Shown: one piece after another, positions 446 through 60,630 of the stretch
How the letters are laid out: the number at the start of each line of letters is the position of its first letter
Position numbering within the stretch: position 1 is the stretch's first letter
The notes under the pieces: generated by a model
Seen by the model: only the letters and a program-made list of their open reading frames with translations
Told to the model about the DNA's origin: nothing
Database searches by the model: none
Made by a program: the position numbers and the translations under genes
Source of the DNA: Ignavibacteria bacterium
GTDB taxonomy: Bacteria; Bacteroidota; Ignavibacteria; Ignavibacteriales; SURF-24
Assembly (NCBI GenBank): GCA_037140715.1
Contig: JBAXDX010000002.1
Location: forward strand, 1 to 60,953
Direction of reading: 5' to 3'
Length of the DNA stretch: 60,953 nucleotides

Positions 446-1126
446 TTAATACGCATCAGGAGCAATATAAAAAGCGACTAAAATGAAATGCGACAGGCAG
501 CCGAGTATAACAAACAGATGCCATATTTCATGGAATCCGAAGACACCCGGGAACAGGTCCGGTTTCTTTAATACATAGATTATGGCACCCGCTGTAAAGA
601 ACAATCCGCCAAGTAATAACCAGAACAACGCACTGGCAGGGAACGACTTTAATATCTCGCTAACTGCCATAACAGATAACCAACCCATTAGCAGATAAAT
701 ACCTGTGGAAAGCCTGCGCGGTGCATTAATAATAAATATTTTAACCGTTACACCTGCAATAGCAATAAGCCAGATGACAGTAAGCATCCCCCACTGCCAG
801 AAGCCTCTGAAATAAAACAGACATATCGGAGTGTATGTGCCGGCAATTTGTATAAAAATTGCCGAATGATCCAGCTTCCGCAGTCTTTTTTTTATCTCAT
901 CTCCGCGATTAACCAAATGATAAACCGCACTGGAGGTAAACATAAAGACAAGAGAAAAGCCATAGACATATAATGATATTCTTTTGGTCAGGTTGCCCGT
1001 TCCCGTGAATATTAATACAGCCATTCCGGCTAAAGATAATACTGCCGCAAACAGATGCGTCAGTCCGCTTACAGGTTCCCGCATTTTATTTAACATAATT
1101 CTCTGATGAAATATTATATCATCCAT
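446..1126 (-). CDS. Hemolysin III / PAQR family integral membrane protein
   Basis: Multi-TM profile with motifs SGLTHLFAAVLS, SSAVYH, LDHSAIFIQIAGTYTP and GFHEIWHLFVILG..HF, typical of Hly-III/YplQ. The ORF-track start at 1174 is a TTG. The ATG at 1126 (MDDIIFHQ..), preceded by AGGGA, is preferred but not proven. Confidence 0.85.
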   Translation of the reverse strand: MDDIIFHQRIMLNKMREPVSGLTHLFAAVLSLAGMAVLIFTGTGNLTKRISLYVYGFSLVFMFTSSAVYHLVNRGDEIKKRLRKLDHSAIFIQIAGTYTPICLFYFRGFWQWGMLTVIWLIAIAGVTVKIFIINAPRRLSTGIYLLMGWLSVMAVSEILKSFPASALFWLLLGGLFFTAGAIIYVLKKPDLFPGVFGFHEIWHLFVILGCLSHFILVAFYIAPDAY

Positions 1127-1215
1127 GGCATAATCATTTCCCTTGAAGCAGAGCATGATTAAGAAAATTAACAATTATCATTTTATGGAGTTTTCGGGCA
1201 GGTTAAGAGAGCGGA

Positions 1216-1923
1216 TTAAAGCCAGTCGCCACCCTGGATAGATTCGCGGATTTCTTCAATGCGCTTTTGGTAAGCTGCTCTGTCCTTGGGCGATGCTTTT
1301 GGAAGCAACTCCTCATAGACCTTTAGTGCTTCCTTAAAGTGCCCCTGTGAAATGTAAACTTTAGCCATTGATTCCGATACAATTGGCTTTTGAACCGGTT
1401 TAGCCCTTTCTTCCGTTGGAATCTCAGGTATAGATTCATTCTGTTCCGGAATAATCCGGGCTGTCCTTAGTTTCTTCTCGATTTCTTCAGGAGTATCGTC
1501 TGTCGAAGTATTCTTATGTAGCTCAGGTTTTGCATCTTCTTTTATAATTTCCTTCAGATTATCCTGAAAAAATGCCACGCGGCGGCTTTGGGTAAAGCTG
1601 GTATTTTTATTTCTGTAATTTTCAATCTCGCGTATATAGTAGTTAAGCGTTTCAGGCGAGTTGATAAGATTTATGCCTTTGCGGAAGGATTCTTCGGCAA
1701 GATCGTACTTCTCTGTCATAGTGTAAACTTTACCAAGTAGTATATGTGCGGTAGGATAATTAGGAAAAATCTTAAGTCCGCTTTTAAGTATTTCGACAGC
1801 CTTGCTAAAATTCTCTTTTGAAGCAGCCTGACTTGCTGCGCGAATAAAAAGAGGACTGGCGTTGTCATGTTCATATATCAACGTCAGCTTATCTTCATAA
1901 ATATCTTTACTGTACCTGGTCAA
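1216..1923 (-). CDS. TPR-repeat protein
   Basis: TPR-like helices near both ends (AVEILKSGLKIFPNYPTAHILLGKVY; MAKVYISQGHFKEALKVYEELL) flank a charged linker. TTG start lies 13 nt after the upstream GT2 stop. Confidence 0.6.
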   Translation of the reverse strand: MTRYSKDIYEDKLTLIYEHDNASPLFIRAASQAASKENFSKAVEILKSGLKIFPNYPTAHILLGKVYTMTEKYDLAEESFRKGINLINSPETLNYYIREIENYRNKNTSFTQSRRVAFFQDNLKEIIKEDAKPELHKNTSTDDTPEEIEKKLRTARIIPEQNESIPEIPTEERAKPVQKPIVSESMAKVYISQGHFKEALKVYEELLPKASPKDRAAYQKRIEEIRESIQGGDWL

Positions 1924-1936
1924 AATTCAAACTCTT

Positions 1937-3400
1937 TTATTTTTTTGCGTAAACACTCTTAAGGGACATGGACGAAACGAAAGCAAAGCCGAGAAAGAAT
2001 AACAAATGGAAGGGCAGAGCAGCGATTTCCATAAAATAAATTGCAGCGACAACACCTACAAAGCAGTAAGCAGCTAATGTCAACTCGACATAAACAGATA
2101 TATCAACCTTTCTTTTTGCTCTGTAGTTCGGATTTACCTGCGCGGCAGCCGGCTGGTCTGTTCCGTCTTTCTTTACCTTTGGCGTGCGGACAAATTCGCT
2201 CTTTCTGTTTAACAGACCTTCAATAACCGCTCTTGAATTATTTACAGCAAAGCCCATACTGCCTGCCATAAACAATGGAAATAAGGCTATCTTCTTTCTC
2301 CAGTCGGTATGAATATCTTTCTGTGAATATAAATAGAACAGGAATGAGCTGATAAAAGCAAGAATGAATATTGACATACTGTTAAAGAATGCGTCATGCG
2401 GGCCACTGTTCTTAATAAAGACAAGCGGAACATTAAGAATACCTGCAAGAAGAATAAACGGGAAAGCCAGATTGCTTGATAAATGAAATGTACAGTGAAG
2501 CTTAATTCTCAAAGGCACATCCGACTTCCAAACCTGAGGCAGTAATTTCTTTGCTGTTTCAATATGACCTTTTGTCCATCTGAATTGCTGAGCCTTGAGT
2601 GCATTAATTTCGTCCGGAAGCTCAGCCGGAGTGGTAAAGTCTCTCAGGTAAACAAACTTCCAGCCTTTAAGCTGAGCGCGGTAACTGAGGTCAAGGTCTT
2701 CGGCTAATGTGTCGCCCTGCCAGTTGCCCGCGTCTTCGATACATTCCCTTTTCCAGACACCGCCAGTCCCGTTGAAAGTAATAAAGAAGCCGGCTTTATT
2801 TCTTACACTCTGTTCAATTACAAAGTGGCCGTCAAGGGCAAGCGCCTGAACTTTTGTAAGCAGCGATGACTCGCTGTTGGCATGTCCCCATCTTGTCTGC
2901 ACCATACCGATCTTAGGTTTGTTAAAGAACCTGAGTGTTTTTCGCAGGAAGTTGGGAGTAGGCATAAAGTCTGCATCAAAAATCGCGATGTAGTCACCTT
3001 TGGCAATCTTCAGACCTTCCAGAAGAGCGCCAGCCTTAAAACCCTGACGGGAGTTTCTTCTTATATGATGGATATCGAAGCCAAGCTCCCGCTTTTCCTT
3101 TACAAGTCTTTCCACAAGCGCGGTAGTTTCATCGGTGGAATCATCCAGCACCTGGATTTCCAGAAGCTCCTTCGGATACTCAATCTTGCAGACACATTCA
3201 ATCAGGCGTTCGATTACGAATAATTCGTTATATAATGGAAGCTGAATGGTAACTTTTTTGTCTTCCTTGAAATCCTTATTCTCCTGCGGCTTATTCTTGG
3301 CATAGCGGTTATGATAGAAAAGCATAATGAACCCATGACTGGCAAAAATCAGAAGAATTGAAAGGGAAATGAAATAAGAAATGAGCACCAGATCGTCCAT
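1937..3400 (-). CDS. Processive family-2 glycosyltransferase (cellulose synthase / CslA-like)
   Basis: N-terminal TM helix, then DDSTDET, FDADF and the QQFRWTKG (QxxRW) motif, followed by several C-terminal TM helices. Confidence 0.85.
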   Translation of the reverse strand: MDDLVLISYFISLSILLIFASHGFIMLFYHNRYAKNKPQENKDFKEDKKVTIQLPLYNELFVIERLIECVCKIEYPKELLEIQVLDDSTDETTALVERLVKEKRELGFDIHHIRRNSRQGFKAGALLEGLKIAKGDYIAIFDADFMPTPNFLRKTLRFFNKPKIGMVQTRWGHANSESSLLTKVQALALDGHFVIEQSVRNKAGFFITFNGTGGVWKRECIEDAGNWQGDTLAEDLDLSYRAQLKGWKFVYLRDFTTPAELPDEINALKAQQFRWTKGHIETAKKLLPQVWKSDVPLRIKLHCTFHLSSNLAFPFILLAGILNVPLVFIKNSGPHDAFFNSMSIFILAFISSFLFYLYSQKDIHTDWRKKIALFPLFMAGSMGFAVNNSRAVIEGLLNRKSEFVRTPKVKKDGTDQPAAAQVNPNYRAKRKVDISVYVELTLAAYCFVGVVAAIYFMEIAALPFHLLFFLGFAFVSSMSLKSVYAKK

Positions 3401-3422: not shown

Positions 3423-4049
3423 TTACCAGTTTGATACTGTTCCAATTAATATATCATCTGAAATCCTGTCGGCTGTCTCGTCAATTGCCTTATTACGATT
3501 GGCAACTACACCGCCGCCGGATTCATAATTTGCATAGCCGGAGTAAGATTTCTCTGAAATCGTTCTCTTTTTAACCGTGTCCTTAAATAAAACCTTTACA
3601 CCGATAGTAATCCTTTTACCGGAAACATTTTCATTGCCCTGTCCTCCGCTAATTATCGTGGGGGCATCGTTGAAGGAAACAATCGTACATTCCAAAAGCG
3701 CGTTGGCATTTATTCTGTCGCTGACCTGAAGCGTATTATCCTCAACAAACCTGGTTGTTAGTTTATCCTTCAGTATTTCTCTTAGTCTCAGCTCACCGTT
3801 TCCGCTTTTATCCTCAAAAGCAGGAATAAAAACTGTCTTTAAGTGAGGAGGTACCGAAGCACCGGTAAAAGAATAAAAACAACCGGTAAAGTTAGTGTTT
3901 GTAGTAACAACAAACAATAGCAGGAGCACTGACTGATTAAGACAAGAGCGCCGGCACAGGCTCAGGGCATTCCCTAAAGTCAGTATCCTTCTTAATTGAT
4001 TAAGATGAATCCGAATTTTGTCCCTGAGCTTTAGAAGTTTATATATCAT
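3423..4049 (-). CDS. Lipoprotein, possibly LptE-like
   Basis: Lipobox-like ..NFTGC followed by a ~150-aa soluble domain (KTVFIPAFEDKSG.., ALLECTIVSF) reminiscent of LptE. The ATG at 4049 overlaps the upstream gene stop by 11 nt (ATGATATATAA). Family assignment is from memory only. Confidence 0.4.
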   Translation of the reverse strand: MIYKLLKLRDKIRIHLNQLRRILTLGNALSLCRRSCLNQSVLLLLFVVTTNTNFTGCFYSFTGASVPPHLKTVFIPAFEDKSGNGELRLREILKDKLTTRFVEDNTLQVSDRINANALLECTIVSFNDAPTIISGGQGNENVSGKRITIGVKVLFKDTVKKRTISEKSYSGYANYESGGGVVANRNKAIDETADRISDDILIGTVSNW

Positions 4050-5208
4050 ATTCCTGCATTTTCCGGTATAGAGTTCTTTCACTTATGCCGAGCATCTTAG
4101 CTGCCTGTTTTTTATTGCCTTTTGAATAATTCAGAGCATTTTTAATAGCTTCCCTTTCCACAGTTTCAAAGGGCAGAACTTCGCTTACCTCGGCGCGGAC
4201 AGATTCATTGCTTATCTCCTGAGTATTCTTAAAAACCAACTGTTTCAGGTCAAGCAGGTCCTTCTTTATTTCAATCAAAGCGCGGTAAATCATCTCCCTG
4301 TCAACATCCTCCGGTGAGCGGTGCAGATGGACGGGCAGATTCCGGTTATCCTTAACTTCATCATGCGACTGAAACATGAAATAAAATGATTCCACATCCA
4401 GAATACCCGAACGGCTTAAAGCAATTGCTGTTTCAATAGTGTTTTTCAGCTCTCTTATATTGCCTGGCCAGTTATAATTTATCAGCATCTCGCGCGCTTC
4501 ATTAGTAATCAGAGGCGGAGGGATGTTGTTGTTTTTTGAATAGTGATTAAGGAAGTAATCGACAAGCTCATTTATATCCTCGCGCCTTTTTCTCAGCGGA
4601 GGAATGTTTAAGGAAACAGCTTTGAGCCTGAAATACAAATCCTCTCTGAAACGCTTTGCGTCAACTTCCTTCTGGAGGTCTTTATTTGTGGCCGCTATAA
4701 TCCTTACATCAACTTTGGTGAGTGTTTCACTGCCAATTCTCATAAATTCTTTAGTCTCAAGGACGCGAAGCAGCCTGACCTGTGTCGTCAGCGGCATTTC
4801 TGCAATCTCATCCAGAAAGAGTGTGCCACCATCAGCAATTTCAAAATACCCTTTGCGGTTATCAACCGCCCCGGTGAATGCGCCTTTTTTATGTCCGAAT
4901 AACTCGCTTTCAAGTATCCCTTCGGGAATAGCGCCGCAGTTCACACTTACCAGACGCTCTGCACTTCTTTTACTGTAACCATGAATTGCCTGGGCAAATA
5001 CCTCCTTGCCAACGCCACTTTCGCCATAGATAAGTACAGAAATATCAGACTGTGCCACCTGCATCGTTATATCTACAAGATCACGTATTTCTTTGGACTT
5101 ACCAACAATACGGAATTCTTTTTGAAAATTCTCGATTGAGACTGCCTTTGTATTTGTGTTGCTAAAATAAGCAAATTTATTCATGCCAAATGTACTGATT
5201 TTTTTCAT
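4039..5208 (-). CDS. Sigma-54-dependent transcriptional activator (bEBP) without an N-terminal sensory domain
   Basis: AAA+ core with Walker A GESGVGKE, the GAFTGA loop (KKGAFTGA) and ELFGH. C-terminal Fis-type HTH (AAKMLGISERTLYRKM). Only ~30 residues precede the AAA+ module. Confidence 0.9.
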   Translation of the reverse strand: MKKISTFGMNKFAYFSNTNTKAVSIENFQKEFRIVGKSKEIRDLVDITMQVAQSDISVLIYGESGVGKEVFAQAIHGYSKRSAERLVSVNCGAIPEGILESELFGHKKGAFTGAVDNRKGYFEIADGGTLFLDEIAEMPLTTQVRLLRVLETKEFMRIGSETLTKVDVRIIAATNKDLQKEVDAKRFREDLYFRLKAVSLNIPPLRKRREDINELVDYFLNHYSKNNNIPPPLITNEAREMLINYNWPGNIRELKNTIETAIALSRSGILDVESFYFMFQSHDEVKDNRNLPVHLHRSPEDVDREMIYRALIEIKKDLLDLKQLVFKNTQEISNESVRAEVSEVLPFETVEREAIKNALNYSKGNKKQAAKMLGISERTLYRKMQEYDI

Positions 5209-5248
5209 ATAATAGAGAATAAAAAATCCCGCTTACCGGAGTTCAGCT

Positions 5249-5980
5249 TTATTTTTCATCTAAAGGTATTACTCTGCCGTTTAATTTATAACGTTCATTT
5301 ATCTGAAGAAGCACCGCACGGGCTTCGTCTTCAGTTACAAAGCTGCCTACGTTCAGCACATTCAGAGTTGTTCCCGCTACATTTTTCTGTTTAATATCTG
5401 AAGTATATCCTTCCGCTACAAATGAATTCTTTATGCGCTGAGCGTTGATTAAATTAATGAACGCGCCCGCCTGAATAGTAAATTTTGGTTCCGCTTTCAG
5501 ATGCGATGGCTTTACCTCCGGCTTTGGAAGTTCTATTTGCGTATCATTGCCTGCCCGAATTTCGGCATCTGTTTTTTTTTCAGCCAGCGAAATATAAGGG
5601 GAGTCAGGGTAATTTTTCTTAAGCCTGTCGAGATATGCCCTGGATGTTGTGTAAAGCCCCTGTGCATAATAGTAAGAATATATCTTATATATAGAAGCTC
5701 CGGCATATCTTGATTGAGGGTATCGGTCCATTATGACCGAGTATTTTGAAACAGCTTCATTGGCATCGGTAGTCAGCAAAGCATCGAGATACAGAACAGA
5801 AGGGTCTTTCGGATGTTCCTTGAAAAGCGTTTGAAGAGCTTCTTTAGCCCTTGCCGTTTCGCCAGATTCAATCAACCTTAATTGCTGATTAATATAGACT
5901 TCCTGAGCAAAACCCGTGAACTGCATGAGAAACAGCTGGAACATTAAAGCAAAAAATATTTTCGAAAATGAAAAGTCCAT
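5249..5980 (-). CDS. Secreted TPR plus SPOR-domain protein
   Basis: Signal peptide (..FTGFAQE), TPR-like middle region, and a C-terminal SPOR-like segment FTIQAGAFINLINAQRIKNSF..VGSFVTEDEARAVL. Confidence 0.7.
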   Translation of the reverse strand: MDFSFSKIFFALMFQLFLMQFTGFAQEVYINQQLRLIESGETARAKEALQTLFKEHPKDPSVLYLDALLTTDANEAVSKYSVIMDRYPQSRYAGASIYKIYSYYYAQGLYTTSRAYLDRLKKNYPDSPYISLAEKKTDAEIRAGNDTQIELPKPEVKPSHLKAEPKFTIQAGAFINLINAQRIKNSFVAEGYTSDIKQKNVAGTTLNVLNVGSFVTEDEARAVLLQINERYKLNGRVIPLDEK

Positions 5981-6039
5981 AGATTGATTACACCCCTTCT
6001 ATCCTGAATGAATTATGATTCGGCGAAGAAACAGGTAAC

Positions 6040-7365
6040 TTAAACATCCACACCCTGCTCTGTCACATCTCCGAACAACGTACCTGAAGTTGCACCTTTT
6101 ATCCTGACTTTAATGTAACTGCCTTCACTTACATTCTCAGAGACCGGAAAAACAACGACCTTGTTTGAATCAGTCCTGCCAGCCATAAACTTATCAGACT
6201 TCCTGCTAAAGCCTTCCACAAGTGCGCACTCTTCCCTGCCAATTAATGTCTGATTAATATCATAAGAAATCTGTTGCTGAAGGTCTATAATCTCAGTCAG
6301 ACGCTTAGTTTTATCCGCTTCTGGCACATCATCCTCCATCTTATAAGCTTTAGTTCCCTCGCGTGGAGAATATTTGAACATATACGCGCCATCATAGCGG
6401 ACTTTACGCATAATATCGAGCGTCATAAGATGGTCATCATAAGTTTCGGTAGGGAAGCCTGAAATTATATCAGTCGAAAAACTGACACCCGGGATAATCT
6501 TCCTGGCTTTTTCTATCAGGCTCATGTATTCTTCTATCGTATAATTGCGGTTCATCAGTTCAAGAATTCTTGTGGAACCCGACTGAACAGGCAGATGGAT
6601 ATATTTGCAGATATTATCATGTGTGGCAATAGTATATAGAAGTTTCTCGGATAAGTCCTTCGGGTGAGAAGTAGTAAAGCGTATGCGCATAAGCGGGTCA
6701 GCTTTGGCGCATAAGTCCAGAAGATCGGCAAAGTCAAAGTTTTTATCATTATATGAGTTAACGTTCTGTCCGAGAAGCGTAACCTCGCGAAAACCTCTGG
6801 ATGAAAGCTCTCTTAGTTCAGATACTATTGAAGAAAGGTCCCGGCTCCGTTCGCGTCCGCGTGTAAATGGGACAACGCAGAAAGTACAGAACTTATCACA
6901 GCCACGCATAACAGAAATCCATGCCTGCAGTCCGTCCTCACGATAAGGAATAATATCCTCATAAGTTTCCGCGCGGGAAAGCTTAACGCCAATGCCCTTG
7001 CCGCCACTAAAGGCCATGTCGAGAAACTCAGGCAGCCGGCGATATTCGTCCGGCCCGACTACGATATCCACGATTTTCTTTTCCTCTATCAAATCCTTCT
7101 TCAGCCTTTCAGCCATACAACCCAAAATACCTACTATAAGCTCAGGTTTAGATAACTTGAGATTCTTAAAATTACCGAGACGTCCATATATCCTTTGCTC
7201 GGCATTCTCGCGCACACTGCAAGTATTTAATAAAACCACGCCGGCTTTATCTACATCTTTAGTTATCTGATAACCTCGGCTGTTAAGTATGCCCATTACT
7301 ATTTCGGTATCAGCCAGGTTCATCTGGCAGCCGTAGGTTTCAATATATATATTATTATTAGACAT
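6040..7365 (-). CDS. miaB: tRNA-2-methylthio-N6-dimethylallyladenosine synthase
   Basis: N-terminal YIETYGCQMN, radical-SAM CDKFCTFCVVP, TRAM-like C-terminus. The ATG at 7365 gives the canonical N-terminus. The ORF-track start at 7410 is a TTG. Confidence 0.9.
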   Translation of the reverse strand: MSNNNIYIETYGCQMNLADTEIVMGILNSRGYQITKDVDKAGVVLLNTCSVRENAEQRIYGRLGNFKNLKLSKPELIVGILGCMAERLKKDLIEEKKIVDIVVGPDEYRRLPEFLDMAFSGGKGIGVKLSRAETYEDIIPYREDGLQAWISVMRGCDKFCTFCVVPFTRGRERSRDLSSIVSELRELSSRGFREVTLLGQNVNSYNDKNFDFADLLDLCAKADPLMRIRFTTSHPKDLSEKLLYTIATHDNICKYIHLPVQSGSTRILELMNRNYTIEEYMSLIEKARKIIPGVSFSTDIISGFPTETYDDHLMTLDIMRKVRYDGAYMFKYSPREGTKAYKMEDDVPEADKTKRLTEIIDLQQQISYDINQTLIGREECALVEGFSRKSDKFMAGRTDSNKVVVFPVSENVSEGSYIKVRIKGATSGTLFGDVTEQGVDV

Positions 7366-7586
7366 TATATCCTTTACATTCGTGAAACTAATATAAAGAT
7401 TAAAATGCAACCATTCAACGAAATGGGTATATATAATTGGGACTTTTCATAATCAATATTCACTTTATCTAAAGCGGATATGATTAACAGGGAAATAATT
7501 CTCTTATAGTTTTCATTCCAATTACTAAACTCTATTTCCATTTTTGTATATTTGACTCATAACTTTAACAATATTATGGAATAACT

Positions 7587-53396: not shown

Positions 53397-53479
53397 ACCT
53401 TTAGAACACATTAGCGAAGGAACCATTATATCATCCATTCTACGATATTTCAGGTTAAATTTATCCCGCCTTGCAGTTT

Positions 53480-54094
53480 CTATTCGAAGGGTTGCCGGAT
53501 AATTGTTTTCATTTTTGCAGGGTCGGCTTTTCTTGGATCGCTCAGATAAATTTCATGATGAAATCCGCGAAGACTGTGTCCATTTTCCTTTATAAAATTA
53601 TGCAGTTTAAGTATAGTGGGAGTTTCATCCGAATAAGGACCAATATGCATAATTTGCGCACATCGGCCTTCATGATAATTTTCGAAGCGGACTTCCTTGA
53701 TTGCTTCAATTTGCTTTTTAGCATAAGCGGTAACAGAAGCTTTTTCCACATCGGCAGTATTAATAAATTCCGGTTGCATAATCATAAGAGTCCATTTCCA
53801 TGCGGATTTATCCTCAATAGAAAATAACTTCATATCATCGCACCACCAAAGACCTTCGAGAGGTGGCACTACATAGTCAGGGAGAGCCGGCACCTCTTTT
53901 TTACACATAAATTTAAGGGTATAGGCGACTGAATAGAGGGATTCAACGCAATTATTGAATTTTTCGGAGTTGTTCGGGTCGCCATTACCATTAATCATCA
54001 GATAATTCATGCAGGGGACATCTACTTCTACAACGTTCTTAACCGGAGGATTAAACAACTCTGCATATTGTTTCTTCATATCAATTTTTGTCAT
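53480..54094 (-). CDS. GyrI-like small-molecule-binding domain protein
   Basis: Start ..KKQYAELFNPP.., MNYLMINGNGDPN, SVAYTLKF, WKWTLMIMQPEFI, EGRCAQIMHIGPY, typical of this family as I recall it. Confidence 0.55.
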   Translation of the reverse strand: MTKIDMKKQYAELFNPPVKNVVEVDVPCMNYLMINGNGDPNNSEKFNNCVESLYSVAYTLKFMCKKEVPALPDYVVPPLEGLWWCDDMKLFSIEDKSAWKWTLMIMQPEFINTADVEKASVTAYAKKQIEAIKEVRFENYHEGRCAQIMHIGPYSDETPTILKLHNFIKENGHSLRGFHHEIYLSDPRKADPAKMKTIIRQPFE

Positions 54095-54099
54095 ATCGA

Positions 54100-54507
54100 T
54101 TATTTTACCCCTCTTTCAATCAGAAACGGGCTGTATTTTTTATCAACTACACAGATGTGATGAATAAGCCAGTCCCTGAGAAAATTTATAATTTCAATAG
54201 AAACGATAGAGCTACCTGTAAGAAACCTTCCCTGATAGTCCAGTACTTTAGAGACAAACAACTGGTGTTCTCTTTTATGTCCGGCAGTATCAGGGTAATC
54301 AAACTGGGCGAAATATTTTTCTTCGAGAGTAAAATGAGTCTGAGTATATTTAATCAGGTTTTGAATAATAATACTAAGAGCTTCTTTAGCTTTGCCGGCT
54401 TTCATGGCTTCATGAAGTTCGTTAATATAATTGACCAGCTTTTTATGCTGATTATCAATTTCATTAATTCCGACAGAGTATCGTTGATTCCAGTTTATAA
54501 AAGGCAT
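54100..54507 (-). CDS. Bacteriohemerythrin
   Basis: MPFINWNQRYSVGINEIDNQHKKLV, HFTLEEKYF, YPD...HKREH, WLIHHI..D (His/Asp/Glu iron ligands). AGGGA lies 5 nt before the ATG at 54507. Confidence 0.85.
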   Translation of the reverse strand: MPFINWNQRYSVGINEIDNQHKKLVNYINELHEAMKAGKAKEALSIIIQNLIKYTQTHFTLEEKYFAQFDYPDTAGHKREHQLFVSKVLDYQGRFLTGSSIVSIEIINFLRDWLIHHICVVDKKYSPFLIERGVK

Positions 54508-54811
54508 AATTTCCCTCATAGATTAGTTGAATAAATTCATAAAAAAAATGTTTTAATTATAACCTGCCGGCATCCTCGTTTAATAAATGCGGATTATCGT
54601 CCATTCCTGTAACCTGTTTGGTAATAGATTTTATGCAAGTCTAAATAAATCGGCTGACTAATATAACTTCAATCCCAAATCAAAACAACAGAGATAAAAA
54701 ATAAGCCGGTGTGTCGCGCTAAATAATGCCTGACAGAATAAAAAAAAGAAAGAGACAAAGAAAATATGTTGTTTCACTCTTTACTTCTTATCGTGTATGG
54801 ATAAGAAATTC

Positions 54812-56284
54812 TCAAAATCTGTAAGTAACGGTAAATATCATATTGCGGGATTTGATATCCTGATTCGTACGGGACACATTTACTCCATAATTATCGCCGA
54901 TATCTTTCCACCAGCCGTAAGCATAAGCAATATCAAAGGCAAAGGATTCATCGGCAAGGAATCCGAGTCCGCCGGTAATATACTTCTTATCATAGTCTGA
55001 GACATTCTGATCCGAAATATATGGCGAAGGGTTCATCATAAATCCAGCCCTGACTCTTAAATCAATTTCCGGAATTGTATATTCAGCACCGAGATTGTAA
55101 TTAACAACTCCGCGGAACTGTTCTTTAATATCTTTATTATTCAGAGCCATCAACATGGAACTTAGTCCGCCTGTAAATTCCATCCCGGTATAATCGATAT
55201 AAGAAATACCGGCGCTTACAACTGCTCCCTTATAGTTAAAAGCCGCCCCGCATGAAAAAATATAAGGAGTTAAAATGTCATATTCGGAGCTGCTTTCAAA
55301 GGGATTATTAAGACTAATCACCTGTCCGTCTGCAAATTCACTTCGGCCGGTAACGGTATAATTTTCCTTAATTATATAATGCGCAGGGAATTTAATATTT
55401 CCGCCAATCCTGAGTCCGTACTCCCTGTATTTATTCATCTGATATAAAAAGCCGATATTTGCATCCCAGCCTGATATATCCCAATTAAGAATATCATTAA
55501 AATAAAAGAGTCTGAACCCGCGCGTTGTAATATCGCCCGGATCAGTCTGTATATTTCGGTAAACATTCTTAGTATCTTCTTCATAATAATCGCGGGTTCT
55601 GCTATAATCACCTGAATAGACATTCAGCGTTGCTCCAACAAAAACATTAGGAGCCACCTCAGATGCACCTGAAAAAGCCCACTTGCCGATACTGCCTTTT
55701 GAAAGTGTAGTCCCGTCCTGATTTAATTTACCGTTAATAGGCGTGTTGTCACCTGTTGAATCAGTAAGATACAGATAATACGGCAGATCGCGCGGACCTA
55801 AAAGAGACTGGATCATCGAAGTATTGCCGCTATTGTAACCATTGAAATTTACAGCTCCGTTAAAATCCTTATCCTTATTATAGCCAATGGCAAAAACAAG
55901 ACTGCCCCTCAGGGTCGGAAATGGAAAGGCAAAGCTTAAATTATCAAGCTTTGTCGTACTGTTAGAATAATTCGTCTTCACACCGCCAGAATAATCAGCG
56001 CCTGATCCGGAAAGCGATGTAGAATTATTAAATTTAGAATAAAACATTCCGCCTGCGAACTCCATTCTTTTAATCAGTGCAAAACCTGCGGGATTAAAAG
56101 AAGAGGCTGAAAAGTCATCGCTTAATGCCGTATAAGCATTACCCATACCCAAAGCACGGGCATTTGAAGCAAGACCGGGTTCAGAAAGCCTTAAAGCATC
56201 ACCCGCGTTTTGCGCAAAAATATCAGATGCAATAAGAGCTAAAAGGGAAAGAACAAGAACCATTGTTTTCTTTAAAGCATGCAT
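54812..56284 (-). CDS. Outer-membrane beta-barrel protein (FadL/PorV/UPF0164-like)
   Basis: Signal peptide ..IFAQ, N-terminal ARALGMGNAYTALSDDFSASSFNPAG, alternating-hydrophobic strands throughout, C-terminal FTVTYRF. Confidence 0.75.
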   Translation of the reverse strand: MHALKKTMVLVLSLLALIASDIFAQNAGDALRLSEPGLASNARALGMGNAYTALSDDFSASSFNPAGFALIKRMEFAGGMFYSKFNNSTSLSGSGADYSGGVKTNYSNSTTKLDNLSFAFPFPTLRGSLVFAIGYNKDKDFNGAVNFNGYNSGNTSMIQSLLGPRDLPYYLYLTDSTGDNTPINGKLNQDGTTLSKGSIGKWAFSGASEVAPNVFVGATLNVYSGDYSRTRDYYEEDTKNVYRNIQTDPGDITTRGFRLFYFNDILNWDISGWDANIGFLYQMNKYREYGLRIGGNIKFPAHYIIKENYTVTGRSEFADGQVISLNNPFESSSEYDILTPYIFSCGAAFNYKGAVVSAGISYIDYTGMEFTGGLSSMLMALNNKDIKEQFRGVVNYNLGAEYTIPEIDLRVRAGFMMNPSPYISDQNVSDYDKKYITGGLGFLADESFAFDIAYAYGWWKDIGDNYGVNVSRTNQDIKSRNMIFTVTYRF

Positions 56285-56287
56285 TAA

Positions 56288-56989
56288 TTATCTCCTGCCT
56301 GAATTTGTTGTTCTGCTGCCGTCATTACTGCGGGCATTAGAATCGCCCGATGAACTTTTGCTGTTATCCTCGCGGCTTTTGGTACTATTCTTATCGTTGC
56401 TCTTTACGGCTTCATTTGATTTTGAAGTATCGCCTGAACTGCTGCCACTACTGTTACTATGACTTACAGAAGTCGGGGGGAAATATGTAGTTGTAGTCCG
56501 GGTAGTAGCTTCTGAACGGCTACCGTCTGATGTTCTTGCGCGTCCATCATACTGACCGGCTGATTTGTCGCCTGTACCGGGATTAGAGACAGAAACAGTT
56601 GGCGGAGCTACATTATGCCACCATGGTCTGTTATAAAAATAACCGTAACTTCCGTAGTACGTGCTTCCATAATAAGGGGCAGAATAGCCACTCACATAAT
56701 ATCCTGAGCCGGAATTACCGGGGTCATTATATTCAGAATTATAATCTTCATCATTCTGAGAATAAGTCTCGGCCGGTTCAGCATTCGTATCTGTTTTTTT
56801 TACATAATCATTATTTGATTTATTGTTATGGCAACTGTTACAATCATCGTAAAAGAAAACCTTTTGTGAGATTGTATAACCATTTTTATCTGTCTTTTCA
56901 ACATTCGGATGCTGAATCATTGTGTAGCATCCTGAGAACATTATGAAAAGAAGAACTGCGAAACTAAAAATCAGACTTCCTGTTTTCAT
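56288..56989 (-). CDS. Low-complexity lipoprotein: Gly/Tyr/Ser-rich core, Ser/Thr/Asn/Arg-rich tail
   Basis: Lipobox FSGC. Core GSGYYVSGYSAPYYGSTYYGSYGYFYNRPWWHN. Tail rich in S/T/N/R/D/K, ending NSGRR. 3 nt upstream of the barrel gene. Confidence 0.7.
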   Translation of the reverse strand: MKTGSLIFSFAVLLFIMFSGCYTMIQHPNVEKTDKNGYTISQKVFFYDDCNSCHNNKSNNDYVKKTDTNAEPAETYSQNDEDYNSEYNDPGNSGSGYYVSGYSAPYYGSTYYGSYGYFYNRPWWHNVAPPTVSVSNPGTGDKSAGQYDGRARTSDGSRSEATTRTTTTYFPPTSVSHSNSSGSSSGDTSKSNEAVKSNDKNSTKSREDNSKSSSGDSNARSNDGSRTTNSGRR

Positions 56990-56995
56990 GATTTT

Positions 56996-58042
56996 CTACC
57001 TGCTTCTTTTGTTATTATCATTACTACTGCTTCTGCCGGCATCATCGTTTCTGCTGTTTCGCGACTGCGGAGCCGGAGTACTGCTTCTCTGCTCTGCCGA
57101 TGGTCTTTCATATACCGGGGCAGGATTTCGTCCCGGCTGTTGCGCCGGATTGTAATTAACATTTCTTCTCTCGCGATTATCCATACGGCTGTGTCTCTGA
57201 TCTCCCGCGTCTCTATTCTGACCATTCCCTGGTTTTTCATAAATAACTCGGGGTTGCTGTCTGCGTCTGACCTCAGACTGACGTTCGTTCCTGTTGTTTG
57301 AATTTGCTCCGGAATCTGGCTTGTAATTCCTGTTTTCGGAAGAAGCATCCCTCTGCCTGGATTTCTGTTCAACAGCACGCCTGCTAACGGCATTTCCTCT
57401 TTGAGTTACAACATCATGACGCTGACGGGTAGTTCCTCCTGAGCCGGAGATAAGCGGATTAGCTATACTGCCTCCTCTTGGGGAAGTTAATAAATCTCTT
57501 CTTCTTGAAGTGTATGCTCCCCTGCCGCCATCATTATTCCTGAGACGTGTTATATCATTTGCGTGATGCTTCCCGCCATAGCCGCCGGAGTATCCGTAAT
57601 TATGACTTCCGTAATAACCCCCGCCCCAGTAATTATAACCATAGTAATGATTGTAAAATGGATAAAAGTCAGCGGAGTAAAACGGGTCAAAAGAACAATA
57701 ATTGTCATACCAGTACGGGTTATAATATCCAAAACCAATACCGGTAGTCAGTCCGGGCTGATAGCCGCCATAATATCTTCTGTAAAAAGGACGGTAATAA
57801 TATCCATCATCATAATTATCGTACGCTGAGCCGCCCTGATAAGACTGATTGTTATCGGCATAGCCGGCGGTATCCTGTCCGGTCTGGTCATCCGAGTAGC
57901 GGTCATTTGTTTCGTAACCCCTGTTTTTATCATAATCACGTTCAGCCCTGTAACCGCGAGTCGAAAGCTGCGTATAACAGCCATAGAAATTACCAAATCC
58001 CGCCAGCAAAGCTAAAAACATAATTCGTTTTAATATTTTCAT
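56996..58042 (-). CDS. Low-complexity lipoprotein: Gly/Tyr/Asn-rich core, Arg/Asn/Ser/Gln-rich tail
   Basis: Lipobox FYGC. Core YYRPFYRRYYGGYQPG..GFGYYNPYWYDNY..YGYNYWGGGYYGSHNYGYSGGYGG. ~170-aa basic tail ending NNKRSR. AGAGGGG precedes the ATG. Confidence 0.7.
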   Translation of the reverse strand: MKILKRIMFLALLAGFGNFYGCYTQLSTRGYRAERDYDKNRGYETNDRYSDDQTGQDTAGYADNNQSYQGGSAYDNYDDGYYYRPFYRRYYGGYQPGLTTGIGFGYYNPYWYDNYCSFDPFYSADFYPFYNHYYGYNYWGGGYYGSHNYGYSGGYGGKHHANDITRLRNNDGGRGAYTSRRRDLLTSPRGGSIANPLISGSGGTTRQRHDVVTQRGNAVSRRAVEQKSRQRDASSENRNYKPDSGANSNNRNERQSEVRRRQQPRVIYEKPGNGQNRDAGDQRHSRMDNRERRNVNYNPAQQPGRNPAPVYERPSAEQRSSTPAPQSRNSRNDDAGRSSSNDNNKRSR

Positions 58043-58086
58043 ATAACTACCCCTCTTAGAATTCTATTACTTCCTGTCAAAAAAAA

Positions 58087-58101
58087 ACAATTAATGTGCC
58101 C
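58087..58101 (-). promoter_or_regulatory. Sigma-54-like -24/-12 element upstream of the lipoprotein operon
   Basis: The minus strand reads GGGCAC-ATTAA-TTGT, against consensus TGGCAC-N5-TTGC. GG-N10 spacing is correct, but the -12 GC is GT. Lies ~45 nt before the ATG at 58042. Confidence 0.25.
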
Positions 58102-58253
58102 TGTTTATTCCCTTATTTCAGAGAAAAAACACATATATGTTTATTATTGTGTCCGATTGAGCGCACTATTGTGTACTAAAAACCGGACATTCTTTTTAAC
58201 TCTGAATTTTTAGCATCAACTGTTTATTGTCAGGAGTTCTTTATTTTTCAAAT

Positions 58254-58646
58254 TTATGCGGCATTGGGCTGAATTGATATTTCAATGAGCGATGGCATAA
58301 GAGAATATTCTGATTTTATTCGCACAGTAATTTTTCCCGGCATATCTTTGGCTTTCAGCGTTAAGATTCCATTATCAATATCATTTTGAATTATCTCAAC
58401 TAAATCGACACCCTCGACAATTTGAAATTCAGCCGGGGATTTTCTAAATGGCACTCTGTTCCCGAATGAGTTCAGCGGAATGACTTCTATTATAGAAGTT
58501 GATTTGTTATCAGCAAATAAGACAACATCTGAGACTTTAAACGAAACTTCATAAATATTAAACATGTACTGCCATAAAGTGAAAATGACGACACATATTA
58601 TACCCGAGATTAAAATCAGTTGTGGCACTTTTGAATTTGTAAACAT
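58254..58646 (-). CDS. Membrane-anchored small protein with an Ig-like beta-rich ectodomain, unknown function
   Basis: One N-terminal TM helix (QLILISGIICVVIFTLW), then ~95 aa of beta-strand-like sequence (IIEVIPLN.., ILTLKAKDMPGKITVRIKS). Confidence 0.5.
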   Translation of the reverse strand: MFTNSKVPQLILISGIICVVIFTLWQYMFNIYEVSFKVSDVVLFADNKSTSIIEVIPLNSFGNRVPFRKSPAEFQIVEGVDLVEIIQNDIDNGILTLKAKDMPGKITVRIKSEYSLMPSLIEISIQPNAA

Positions 58647-58670
58647 TGTTTTTCTAACTTAGTGTAAAAA

Positions 58671-60098
58671 CTATTCCGGTTTCATCTTCTTATATATTGT
58701 TTTTTCTTTCTGATCCTGCAAAACCACGCCGAGCTTCTTTAATTCATCACGTATCTCGTCTGAAAGAGGATAATTTTTCTGTTGTTTTGCTTTGATTCTT
58801 ATGGAAATCAGCAGTTCGATTAGTTCATGCTCAAGCGGCAGACTATTTTCCGCGTCTGTTTTCGTTGTTTCCATATTTACTATACCGAGTACATCCTGTG
58901 CAGTTTTAGCCATGAATTCTTTAGCCTTCTCAAAAAAGTTCAGACCTGGGGATAAGTTCTCGGTAACATACTTATTTACTTCCCTTACAAAGTCAAAAAT
59001 AACCGCACATGCCTGCGGAGTATTAAAATCATCATCCATAGCTTTCCCGAAGGCTTCGTAGAAACTGACAAAGTTAAACCCTGTTAACGTTGCCTGAATT
59101 TCGCCGGCTGACTTTAATCCGCTGTTAATCTTTTCAGCCAGGTTAGTTATTTTTTCCAGTCCTTTCTGAGCACTGCTTAACATTTCCCCGGTAAAATTAA
59201 GCGGACCGGCATAATGCGTCTGAATAAAAAACATTCTGACCGTTTCGGCGGAATATTTATCAAGTATTTCCCTTGCTGTAAGGAAATTTCCAAGTGACTT
59301 CGCCATTTTTTCGTTCTGAATATTAAGAAAGCCGAAATGCAGCCAGTAATTAACAAACTTACGACCCGTTGAGGCCTCGCTCTGAGCTATTTCATTTTCA
59401 TGATGAGGAAAGATAAGGTCGCTTCCGCCGGCGTGGATATCGATTGTTTCTCCAAAATGCTTCATACTCATTGCAGAGCACTCGATATGCCAGCCCGGGC
59501 GGCCTTTTCCCCAGGGACTTTCCCAGTACGGTTCCCCTTCTTTGGCTTTCTTCCAGAGTAAAAAATCAAGCGGGTTTTTCTTTTCATCGTTAATCTCAAC
59601 GCGCGCGCCGGACTCAAGTTCGTCAATTTTCTTTCCGCTAAGCCTTCCGTAACCGGTAAAGCGGTTAACATCATAAAACACGCTGCCGTTAACACTATAT
59701 GCAAATCCTTTTTCCTCCAGCGTTTTTATTAACTCAATAATATCACTTATATGTTCGGTAGCTTTTGGATAGAAGTCAGCTTTTTTAATATTAAGTCTGC
59801 CCGAATCCTCTAAAAATGCTTTTATATATTTCTCGGAAATTGCGCCCGCGTCCTGATGTTCATTGTTCGATTTACGGATAATCTTATCATCGATGTCTGT
59901 AAGATTCATCGCGAACAATACATTATAACCTTTGTACTCAAGATAACGTCTGATAATATCCGCCATTGTAAATGAACGGGCATTGCCGATATGAAACAAG
60001 TCATAAACGGTCGGACCGCATACATACATAGTTACATTTGGCGGATTTATTGGCAGGAATTCTTCTTTCTTTTTCGTTAATGTGTTATAAATCTGCAT
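58671..60098 (-). CDS. cysS: Cysteine--tRNA ligase
   Basis: MYVCGPTVYDLFHIGNAR (HIGH), GWHIECS, FPHHENE, KMAKSLGN (KMSKS). Confidence 0.94.
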   Translation of the reverse strand: MQIYNTLTKKKEEFLPINPPNVTMYVCGPTVYDLFHIGNARSFTMADIIRRYLEYKGYNVLFAMNLTDIDDKIIRKSNNEHQDAGAISEKYIKAFLEDSGRLNIKKADFYPKATEHISDIIELIKTLEEKGFAYSVNGSVFYDVNRFTGYGRLSGKKIDELESGARVEINDEKKNPLDFLLWKKAKEGEPYWESPWGKGRPGWHIECSAMSMKHFGETIDIHAGGSDLIFPHHENEIAQSEASTGRKFVNYWLHFGFLNIQNEKMAKSLGNFLTAREILDKYSAETVRMFFIQTHYAGPLNFTGEMLSSAQKGLEKITNLAEKINSGLKSAGEIQATLTGFNFVSFYEAFGKAMDDDFNTPQACAVIFDFVREVNKYVTENLSPGLNFFEKAKEFMAKTAQDVLGIVNMETTKTDAENSLPLEHELIELLISIRIKAKQQKNYPLSDEIRDELKKLGVVLQDQKEKTIYKKMKPE

Positions 60099-60349: not shown

Positions 60350-60630
60350 TACACAATGAATTATTGTGTCTCACAATAAGAAATGATGCCTTGCAACGGA
60401 TTATAATTTTGTGCAATGGAAAATGACGGCGCGCAATGAATTATAATTCTATGAAATGAGAAATAACGGGAAGAAATGGATTATGAATTTCGTGCAATGG
60501 AAAATAATTCTCTGCAATGAGAAATGACGGCGTGCAATGGAAAATGACGGCGTGCAATGGATTATAATTCTCTGCAATGAGAAATGACGGCGTGCAATGG
60601 ATTATGACGGCGTGCAATGGAAAATGACAG
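60350..60630 (+). repeat. Family-B array: 14 consecutive 20-nt units (NNTGCAATGGAWWATRAYKG)
   Basis: Units are in register from 60350 (one unit is 21 nt). The last seven (60491-60630) are near-identical and organised as a 60-nt higher-order repeat. There are no spacers. Confidence 0.9.

Follow-up and report, generated by a model that had tools for sequence, protein, structure and literature searches.

What does an outer-membrane barrel of the FadL superfamily do in an operon whose other genes encode low-complexity lipoproteins? This question is raised by a locus on contig JBAXDX010000002.1 (assembly GCA_037140715.1) of an Ignavibacteria bacterium, of which we analysed a stretch of 60,953 nucleotides (nt), here called the window. 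Three genes lie on its minus strand, running from 58042 to 56996, from 56989 to 56288 and from 56284 to 54812, with gaps of 6 and 3 nt, as a preliminary description of the sequence had read them. The first (56996..58042) encodes a lipoprotein of 348 residues, LP1, the second (56288..56989) a lipoprotein of 233 residues, LP2, and the third (54812..56284) a barrel of 490 residues. Judged by comparison of sequences, the operon is real, widely conserved and uncharacterised in Ignavibacteria-type bacteria. Our preferred but tentative reading is that of a sigma-54-controlled envelope module, in which one or two disordered lipoproteins with the N-terminal tag CYTQ are served by a cognate FadL barrel of the BamG/PorV branch. 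Here a BamG/PorV-like barrel, itself an addition to a known superfamily, is combined with a disordered CYTQ lipoprotein and a sigma-54 promoter, and this combination is a new form of the recently recognised theme of barrel plus lipoprotein.

The trio had been proposed to form a unit, and comparison of related genomes bears this out. From species-representative genomes we recovered 48 loci with an orthologous barrel, about 40 of them with enough upstream DNA for comparison. These loci are mostly named Ignavibacteriales, Ignavibacteriaceae or Melioribacteraceae and include the cultured Rosettibacter, Stygiobacter and Melioribacter, while a few are named Bacteroidota/Bacteroidetes or Bacillota. 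In about 40 loci, cysS is followed, often after a membrane protein of ~127 residues, by an outer-membrane protein (OMP) of ~257 residues with a signal peptide, LP1, LP2 and the barrel, in this order. LP2 occurs in the Ignavibacterium-like and window-like clades and is absent from Melioribacter-like loci, so that the conserved arrangement is LP1, with or without LP2, followed by the barrel. It extends to distant LP1 relatives of 54-60% GC (loci L049, L053/L054 and L056), in which a PF03349 barrel lies directly downstream. Wherever the sequence reaches far enough, at 30-61% GC, LP1 precedes the barrel with no gene other than LP2 between them. Since the genes beyond the barrel vary among clades and the window retains the gene for the 127-residue protein but has none for the 257-residue OMP, LP1, optionally LP2, and the barrel form the constant core. 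No BamH-like gene was found downstream of the barrel, and the window contained no barrel paralogue, 257-residue OMP or ATP-grasp gene when searched for these.

The lipoproteins themselves belong to a large family. An initial search yielded 27 LP1 homologues, and an LP1 profile retrieved 1208, 420 and 73 clusters at 50% identity with E<=1e-3, E<=1e-10 and E<=1e-30, respectively; among the best-scoring matches listed, coverage was mostly near full length. Both window proteins had been described as beginning with lipoprotein signals, and they do: each has a signal peptide followed by a lipobox of the form [LVI][ASTG][GA]C, from which lipidation is predicted (LP1, ...GNFYG|C22-YTQ; LP2, ...IMFSG|C21-YTM). 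In LP1, the signal peptide comprises residues 1-21, and the putatively lipidated Cys22 is followed by YTQ. Among 139 further family representatives, C-[YF]-T follows the lipobox in 135, mostly as CYTQ[LVIF], and the G-C junction is likewise kept in 135 of 139. By comparison, 22 other lipoprotein-like open reading frames (ORFs) from the same loci start with CS, CT, CA, CQ or CC and never with CYT, which rules out CYT as a general lipoprotein feature of these genomes and marks it as specific to this family.

Downstream of the anchor, both chains were said to pass from an acidic through an aromatic to a basic block. For LP1 this holds in full: residues 22-78 are acidic (net charge -5, D 16%), residues 79-157 form a Tyr/Gly/Phe/Trp core (Y/F/W 41%, G 22%), and residues 158-348 make up an Arg-rich tail (net charge +20, R 18%) ending in KRSR. 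LP2 has the acidic block (residues 21-93; net charge -7, N 16%, D 11%) and the aromatic one (residues 94-127; Y/F/W 38%, core YYGxYGYFYxxPWW), but its tail (residues 128-233, with the end RSNDGSRTTNSGRR) is Ser/Thr-rich and, at just +4, only weakly basic. The order acidic, aromatic, basic recurs in 146 of 147 full-length members; the C-terminal residue is Arg in 116 of 150, and the mean R/(R+K) is 0.73. As the family spans 30-61% GC, persisting at 55-61%, its richness in Tyr and Asn is not an artefact of AT bias.

Neither protein is merely odd in composition, for position-specific motifs are embedded in these blocks, chief among them the near-invariant CYTQ after the lipidation site. LP1 sequences share GCYTQ[LV]A, Y-R-(R/K)-Y-[FY]-W-G-Y-[YH]-P-S, YYDPWYW, YKYRxNxxxR[LI]RNxxGxRG, SY[NS]PP and a C-terminal ...SGRR(R), and LP2 sequences share GCYT[VI], YYGxYGxYYxxPWW, [IV]RNxxGxR and ...RNxGxRNSGxGRR. 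From this common motif scheme in the alignment, LP2 is evidently a shortened paralogue of LP1. The low complexity noted earlier goes along with predicted disorder: an AlphaFold2 model of LP1, built on a 26-sequence alignment, has a mean predicted local distance difference test score (pLDDT) of 46.7, with values below 50 for 282 of 348 residues and a helix only at the signal peptide. Neither lipoprotein had been recognised as belonging to a named family, and Pfam, NCBIfam and the PDB, searched with single sequences and profiles, returned only low-complexity noise; within the libraries and literature searched, the family is thus unnamed and uncharacterised.

The third gene product had been expected to be an outer-membrane barrel on account of its signal peptide, its ARALGMGNAYTALSDD...FNPAG motif and its C-terminal ...TYRF, all of which are present. 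It consists of a signal peptide (approximately residues 1-24), an N-terminal hatch and about 14 strands, and it matches PF03349 (FadL/OMPP1/TodX) with 51 bits (E 1e-13), well above the gathering cut-off of 29.7; its homologues carry a precomputed PF03349 assignment. The most conserved region is the mature N-terminus, QNxxDALRLSxPGLxSxARALGMGNAYxxLSDDxSAxxFNPAG, in which N64-P65-A66-G67 is invariant among the homologues aligned. When aligned on NPA, this N-terminus is several residues longer than that of the FadL homologue 3dwo and about equal in length to that of PorV; BamG is characterised by a conserved N-terminal extension of about 10-12 residues over FadL, which threads through the lateral opening. 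AlphaFold2 modelled the protein with a pLDDT of 86.9 and a predicted template modelling (TM) score of 0.83, as a hatch of short N-terminal helices followed by a barrel of about 14 strands. In a Foldseek search of the PDB with this model, the first three ranks were taken by BamG chains from three species, B. thetaiotaomicron (9hiv_F; E 9.7e-23, target-normalised TM-score 0.72), P. gingivalis (9hjm_F) and F. johnsoniae (9n2d_B), together spanning E-values from 1e-22 to 4e-18. E. coli FadL and TodX came next (E 1e-17 to 1e-14), while PorV (8gl6_F) ranked far lower (E 2e-7, TM-score 0.38-0.49).

At the level of sequence these affinities are weaker. The window barrel scores 41 bits on the NCBIfam BamG model (NF053685), whose cut-off is 250, and 40.6 bits on the PorV_fam model of the PorV/PorQ set (NF033709, NF033710 and NF033711), whose cut-off is 90 and which matched the N-terminal motif only. 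Barrels from distant lineages reach 39-69 bits on the BamG model, with near full-length coverage in three; PorV/PorQ is the other top model and comes first for two of the six barrels scored. Sequence profiles run against the PDB gave weak matches to FadL, TodX and PorV (6h3i_F) and none to a BamG chain. The protein ends in ...TVTYRF directly after its last predicted strand (residues 473-489 of 490), and its orthologues end alike, with no C-terminal extension. Going by the structural model, the barrel is a 14-stranded FadL-superfamily protein whose N-terminus forms a hatch. Its closest relative is BamG, followed by PorV/PorQ, which act as FadL-like shuttle and anchor in type IX secretion. With the latter it shares membership of the protein-binding FadL branch specific to the Fibrobacteres-Chlorobi-Bacteroidetes (FCB) group, and its ARALGMGxA...NPA region matches both PorV_fam and 6h3i_F; it differs from them in its scores below the cut-off and its weak structural similarity.

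The preliminary description had also pointed to a sigma-54-like promoter about 45 nt upstream of the first ATG. The motif is present, as GGCAC-ATTAA-TTGT (GGCACATTAATTGT; 58087..58100, minus strand), but it lies 58 nt before the LP1 start codon, and its -12 element reads TTGT, the consensus being TTGC. Although GGCACATTAATTGT is the sole match in the window, this alone is not significant, as 43 of 100 shuffled sequences give at least one. The comparison of loci is far more telling: in 39 of 40 loci, GG[CT]-N7-TTG occurs at -60 to -38 relative to the LP1 start, whereas shuffled sequences give 0.21 on average and 2 at most, and the intergenic DNA upstream of LP1 is otherwise unalignable. Conservation thus backs the idea of a sigma-54-type promoter, and on this basis such a promoter appears to switch on the operon. 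The full GG-N10-GC is found in 20 of the 40 best matches and also in L056. It characterises the Ignavibacterium clade (AGGCTCGATATTTGCA, with the canonical variant GGCTCGATATTTGC), while the window and the Melioribacter-like clade have GGCA[CT]AATTTTTGT-like sequences with TTGT at -12, in which the final base is T, not C. Motifs from distant lineages are TGGCATGTCGTTTGC (L056) and TGGCACCATTATTGT (L052), both canonical variants, and TGGCATTGAAGTTGT (L049).

Further upstream, two direct repeats, TACACAAT (58175-58168) and GACACAAT (58153-58146), make up a possible activator site at 58146..58177 on the minus strand, 46-88 nt upstream of the -24 element. A related element, GTACA-N17-[TG][AG]TACA as a strict pattern, occurs near -133 in 15 of 40 loci, with looser variants visible in others. 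This conserved repeat is placed as an activator site would be, and may function as one. In L053/L054, a lineage of ~55% GC (GCA_025450675.1), an NtrC-type gene with a receiver, a sigma-54 interaction domain and HTH_8 lies immediately upstream of LP1 (L053:6361-7821, L054:1734-3194). About 3 kb further upstream in the same lineage, with three genes between, there is a gene for a PAS-rich hybrid histidine kinase (977-3202).

The window, too, encodes a sigma-54 activator (4039-5208), which has no receiver or sensor domain, and the genome is therefore likely to use sigma-54; we found no link between this activator and the LP1-LP2-barrel operon. Its gene is part of a minus-strand cluster (3423-7410) together with genes for MiaB (6040-7410), a TPR/SPOR protein with weak similarity to BamD/YfiO (5249-5980) and an LptE-like protein (3423-4082), so that an apparently unregulated enhancer-binding protein sits amid outer-membrane biogenesis genes.

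How might these components work together? A precedent is provided by BamG, a FadL-family barrel bound to BamA, and its partner BamH, a surface lipoprotein whose conserved lipidated N-terminus is wedged into or around BamG, with the acyl chains at the barrel interface (PMC12611786, PMC12578637). PorV, another FadL homologue, is likewise a protein-binding barrel (PMC12611786, PMC12578637). Going by this literature, the nearest known relatives of our barrel dock proteins rather than transport small molecules. In the module that we tentatively envisage, LP1 and LP2 would be exported and then lipidated at the lipobox cysteine, as their sequences predict, and the co-encoded barrel would hold their near-invariant lipidated N-terminus, C-Y-T-Q-hydrophobic, by analogy with BamH in BamG. 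The chains tethered in this way would be tri-block polyampholytes with acidic, Tyr/Trp/Gly-rich and Arg-rich segments, whose composition suggests that they could self-associate through Tyr-Arg and aromatic contacts; alternatively, they could bind polyanions or surfaces and so give rise to a sticky or gel-like outer-membrane layer. Transcription would start from the conserved -24/-12 promoter with the help of an enhancer-binding activator, and as such promoters need an activator of this kind, the module would be made on a signal.

The likeness to BamG-BamH goes beyond the fold, as in both cases the gene for a 14-stranded FadL-superfamily barrel adjoins a lipoprotein gene, and in both the extreme N-terminus is the most conserved part of the lipoprotein. 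However, the present barrel falls far short of the BamG cut-off and lacks a C-terminal extension, LP1 and LP2 are Tyr/Arg-rich with LP1 predicted to be disordered and neither resembling BamH in fold or sequence, and the operon has a sigma-54-type promoter.

Several points weigh against the docking module. The docking of CYTQ to the barrel is suggested only by gene adjacency and analogy, and self-association and polyanion binding only by composition. In the barrel, the FadL-type hatch is complete and includes the NPA motif, which leaves room for a role in small-molecule transport. In many lineages, including that of the window, the consensus TTGC of the -12 element is replaced by TTGT or TTGA. 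Finally, the surface-export signal of Bacteroidota consists of at least two acidic residues among the first six after the lipid-anchor cysteine (PMC12578637). There is no acidic residue in these positions in either LP1 (C-YTQLST) or LP2 (C-YTMIQH), nor in the family consensus CYTQ[LVIF]A. Surface exposure is therefore doubtful, and a periplasmic orientation is favoured unless the barrel itself mediates exposure.

The same BamG similarity could be taken further: the barrel might be the true BamG of the FCB-type β-barrel assembly machinery (BAM) in this lineage, with LP1 and LP2 as accessory lipoproteins that replace BamH and a role in OMP biogenesis. The three BamG chains at the head of the Foldseek ranking speak for this, as does the BamG model, on which several family barrels score best within NCBIfam. 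The module is also found throughout the recovered Ignavibacteria loci in a housekeeping neighbourhood beside cysS. Moreover, the locus tags of bamG and bamH follow each other in I. album (IALB_1455/1454) and in several other FCB phyla (PMC12578637, PMC12611786), and bamG2-bamH2 has been described as a putative operon (PMC12611786, PMC12578637). However, IALB_1455/IALB_1454 could not be mapped to the present locus, and the type-strain genome is not among the 48 loci. Scores of 39-69 bits are far from the cut-off of 250, and sequence-profile searches of the PDB retrieve no BamG chain at all. In published BamG proteins, a conserved extension at the C-terminus reaches BamD with its last residues (PMC12611786, PMC12578637), whereas the family barrels stop at ...YRF. 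The lipoproteins have no similarity to BamH and no predicted folded domain; BamH is a folded, elongated surface lipoprotein, and compared with its solved chains neither gave a PDB match at E<=10, with single sequences or profiles, beyond low-complexity noise. An inducible sigma-54 promoter would also be odd for an essential housekeeping subunit. Given these scores, the missing C-terminal tail, the un-BamH-like partners, the lack of an acidic signal and the inducible-type promoter, we class the barrel as BamG/PorV-like rather than as BamG, and consider it unlikely to be the BamG of this lineage.

A somewhat less likely explanation is that the barrel simply imports hydrophobic or aromatic compounds, as an ordinary FadL/TodX-type protein, and that its lipoproteins capture substrate or condition the envelope. 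With FadL, TodX and TbuX it shares the Pfam family, the fold, the hatch domain and the NPA motif, here an invariant NPAG, and FadL and TodX are strong structural matches. In addition, FadL-family genes such as tbuX and xylN are found in operons regulated by sigma-54 and NtrC-type activators. Nonetheless, the closest sequence models and structures are docking members of the superfamily (BamG and PorV/PorQ) rather than transporters; no catabolic pathway is linked to the operon, the downstream neighbours of the barrel being clade-variable; and the barrel is always paired with a disordered lipoprotein. To our knowledge, strict pairing with a CYTQ lipoprotein is foreign to FadL/TodX transporter systems.

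A bolder version of the docking module, which we regard as speculative and rather improbable as a whole, is suggested by eukaryotic proteins of the FUS type, which combine a Tyr-rich prion-like domain with an Arg-rich RGG domain. As in these, a Tyr/Gly/Ser/Asn-rich and an Arg-rich block come together in one chain that is predicted to be disordered, with Arg preferred over Lys. The analogy is functional, for there is no homology, and LP1 and LP2 are bacterial envelope proteins with a predicted lipid anchor and an extra acidic N-terminal block. In this version they would be membrane-tethered, phase-separating or gel-forming polyampholytes with Tyr- and Arg-rich stickers and a regulatory acidic head, whose CYTQ ends are held by a BamG-like barrel that also nucleates assembly, building an inducible adhesive or selective protein layer at the outer membrane throughout the class; in the window's clade, a CxxCH motif in LP2 would add a heme or metal centre to the aromatic-rich matrix.

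The preliminary description had drawn an analogy, not meant as homology, with curli CsgA/B-CsgG and Fap. In a system of that kind, the low-complexity proteins would be amyloid subunits secreted through a barrel of their own. The operon does contain a dedicated barrel gene, as these systems do, and the aromatic, Gly- and Asn-rich cores resemble amyloid-prone or prion-like sequences. The barrel, however, is neither a generic nor a curli/Fap-type pore, but a plugged 14-stranded FadL protein according to its PF03349 match, its AlphaFold2 model and Foldseek. CsgG and FapF are absent from the 50 Foldseek matches listed, among which non-FadL barrels score weakly (TM-score mostly <0.4). Both LP1 and LP2 are predicted from their lipoboxes to be lipid-anchored rather than free secreted subunits, and there is no Pfam match to curli or Fap proteins. 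No β-rich repeat is predicted; the LP1 model has no β-strand, at a confidence too low to exclude one. We know of no FadL-superfamily member that secretes amyloid subunits, the known ones docking proteins or passing small hydrophobic molecules, and the curli/Fap analogy is very improbable. The Arg-rich ends of LP1 and LP2 (KRSR and GRR) are also unlike the C-terminal signal domain of type IX secretion, although no search was aimed at such a domain.

The extreme composition of LP1 and LP2, together with several overlapping ORFs in alternative frames, might even suggest spurious ORFs in low-complexity DNA, with the barrel as the sole real gene, but the conservation of start, lipobox, motif order and C-terminus in hundreds of full-length homologues at 30-61% GC, as well as a Shine-Dalgarno sequence and close coupling to the downstream gene, refutes this for practical purposes.

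It was not until 2025 that a FadL-like barrel was recognised to pair with a lipoprotein, namely in BamG-BamH at the core of the Bacteroidota-type BAM. The present locus represents a second large branch of this theme, with more than 1200 clusters at 50% identity, in which the partner is a predicted-disordered, Tyr/Arg-rich lipoprotein with a near-invariant CYTQ tag at its lipid anchor rather than a folded scaffold. If docking takes place as envisaged, it would amount to a simple and testable code by which FadL-type barrels recognise lipoprotein N-termini, and the module would be the first example of a tethered layer of disordered sticker proteins in a diderm envelope. If the chains phase-separate or form a gel, this layer would be the equivalent, in a bacterial envelope, of FUS-like condensates or FG-nucleoporin gels, while a true BamG at this locus would mean that the accessory subunits of BAM are far more plastic than thought. 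With docking lipoproteins as with BAM subunits, a context is assigned to a large family now annotated as 'hypothetical protein'.

Some features of the genes deserve mention on their own. The last codons of LP2, GGC AGG AGA TAA (G-R-R-stop), include AGGAG, which is the Shine-Dalgarno sequence for the barrel (56285-56300, minus strand), and the end of LP1, AGA AGC AGG TAG (56990-57005, minus strand), holds a weaker equivalent for LP2. Translational coupling may partly constrain the conserved C-terminal Arg of both proteins. However, an RRR end is also retained across apparently longer gaps of ~25-50 nt, a rough estimate from match coordinates. In LP2, residues 50-54 read CNSCH (56828..56842, minus strand), a CxxCH motif within an insert of ~50 residues. 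The insert is specific to the window's clade, in which FYDDCxSCH is conserved in the five members examined (the window, L001, L015, L042 and P0029), and is absent from other LP2 sequences. LP2 matched no cytochrome family in Pfam or NCBIfam, and a PDB match to a tetraheme cytochrome was insignificant (E 1.5); one might speculate from the motif that it is a heme-c or metal site. The same clade has a specific His after the LP2 anchor, CYTxI[QE]HP.

The barrel is most likely the last gene of the operon, since what follows it changes from clade to clade. A weak terminator-like hairpin, TTCTTATC-CATACAC-GATAAGAA (54785..54807, minus strand), begins 5 nt past the barrel stop codon and has a T-rich stretch beyond it; it was read by eye and not reported by a consensus terminator scan. 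The next gene is 292 nt away. Across this gap follow a Hemerythrin-domain gene (54100-54519) and a GyrI-like gene (53480-54094), both on the minus strand, which probably lie outside the operon, as neither turned up downstream of the barrel in the 13 relatives inspected by eye. Consensus scans for sigma-70 promoters and terminators gave background levels only, and no Rfam family was detected within 53400-58800.

The neighbourhood of the module varies in other ways. The LP1 promoter is immediately preceded by the gene for the ~257-residue OMP in nearly all related loci (for example L042:4535-5326 and L009:5322-6098), and L052 and L055, though distant, have this gene as well. The protein is weakly similar to the N-terminus of YjbH and to OMP_b-brl; its gene is missing from 58043-58253 and from the rest of the window. 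The window also has a gene (58254-58646, minus strand) for a 130-residue protein that matches no family and has a single membrane helix, at its N-terminus. It is conserved in many loci between cysS and the module, while the Melioribacter-like clade lacks it. A RimK-like ATP-grasp gene of ~300 codons, absent from the window, occurs near the module elsewhere (e.g. L009:3961-4875 and L042:10700-11617), on its upstream side in the Ignavibacterium clade; in the Melioribacter-like and window-like clades it is found downstream of the module, on the other strand. Contigs with the module, L001 (JBLNEL010000278.1), P0007 and P0008, are labelled Bacillota, Syntrophomonadaceae or Acidobacteriota in the records of metagenome-assembled genomes, which are probably binning or labelling errors. 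Upstream of cysS, the window contains a tandem array (60381-60628) of ~12 copies of the 20-nt unit CGTGCAATGGAAAATGACGG, for which periods of 40 and 60 also scored, and the repetitive short ORFs at this position result from translation of the array.

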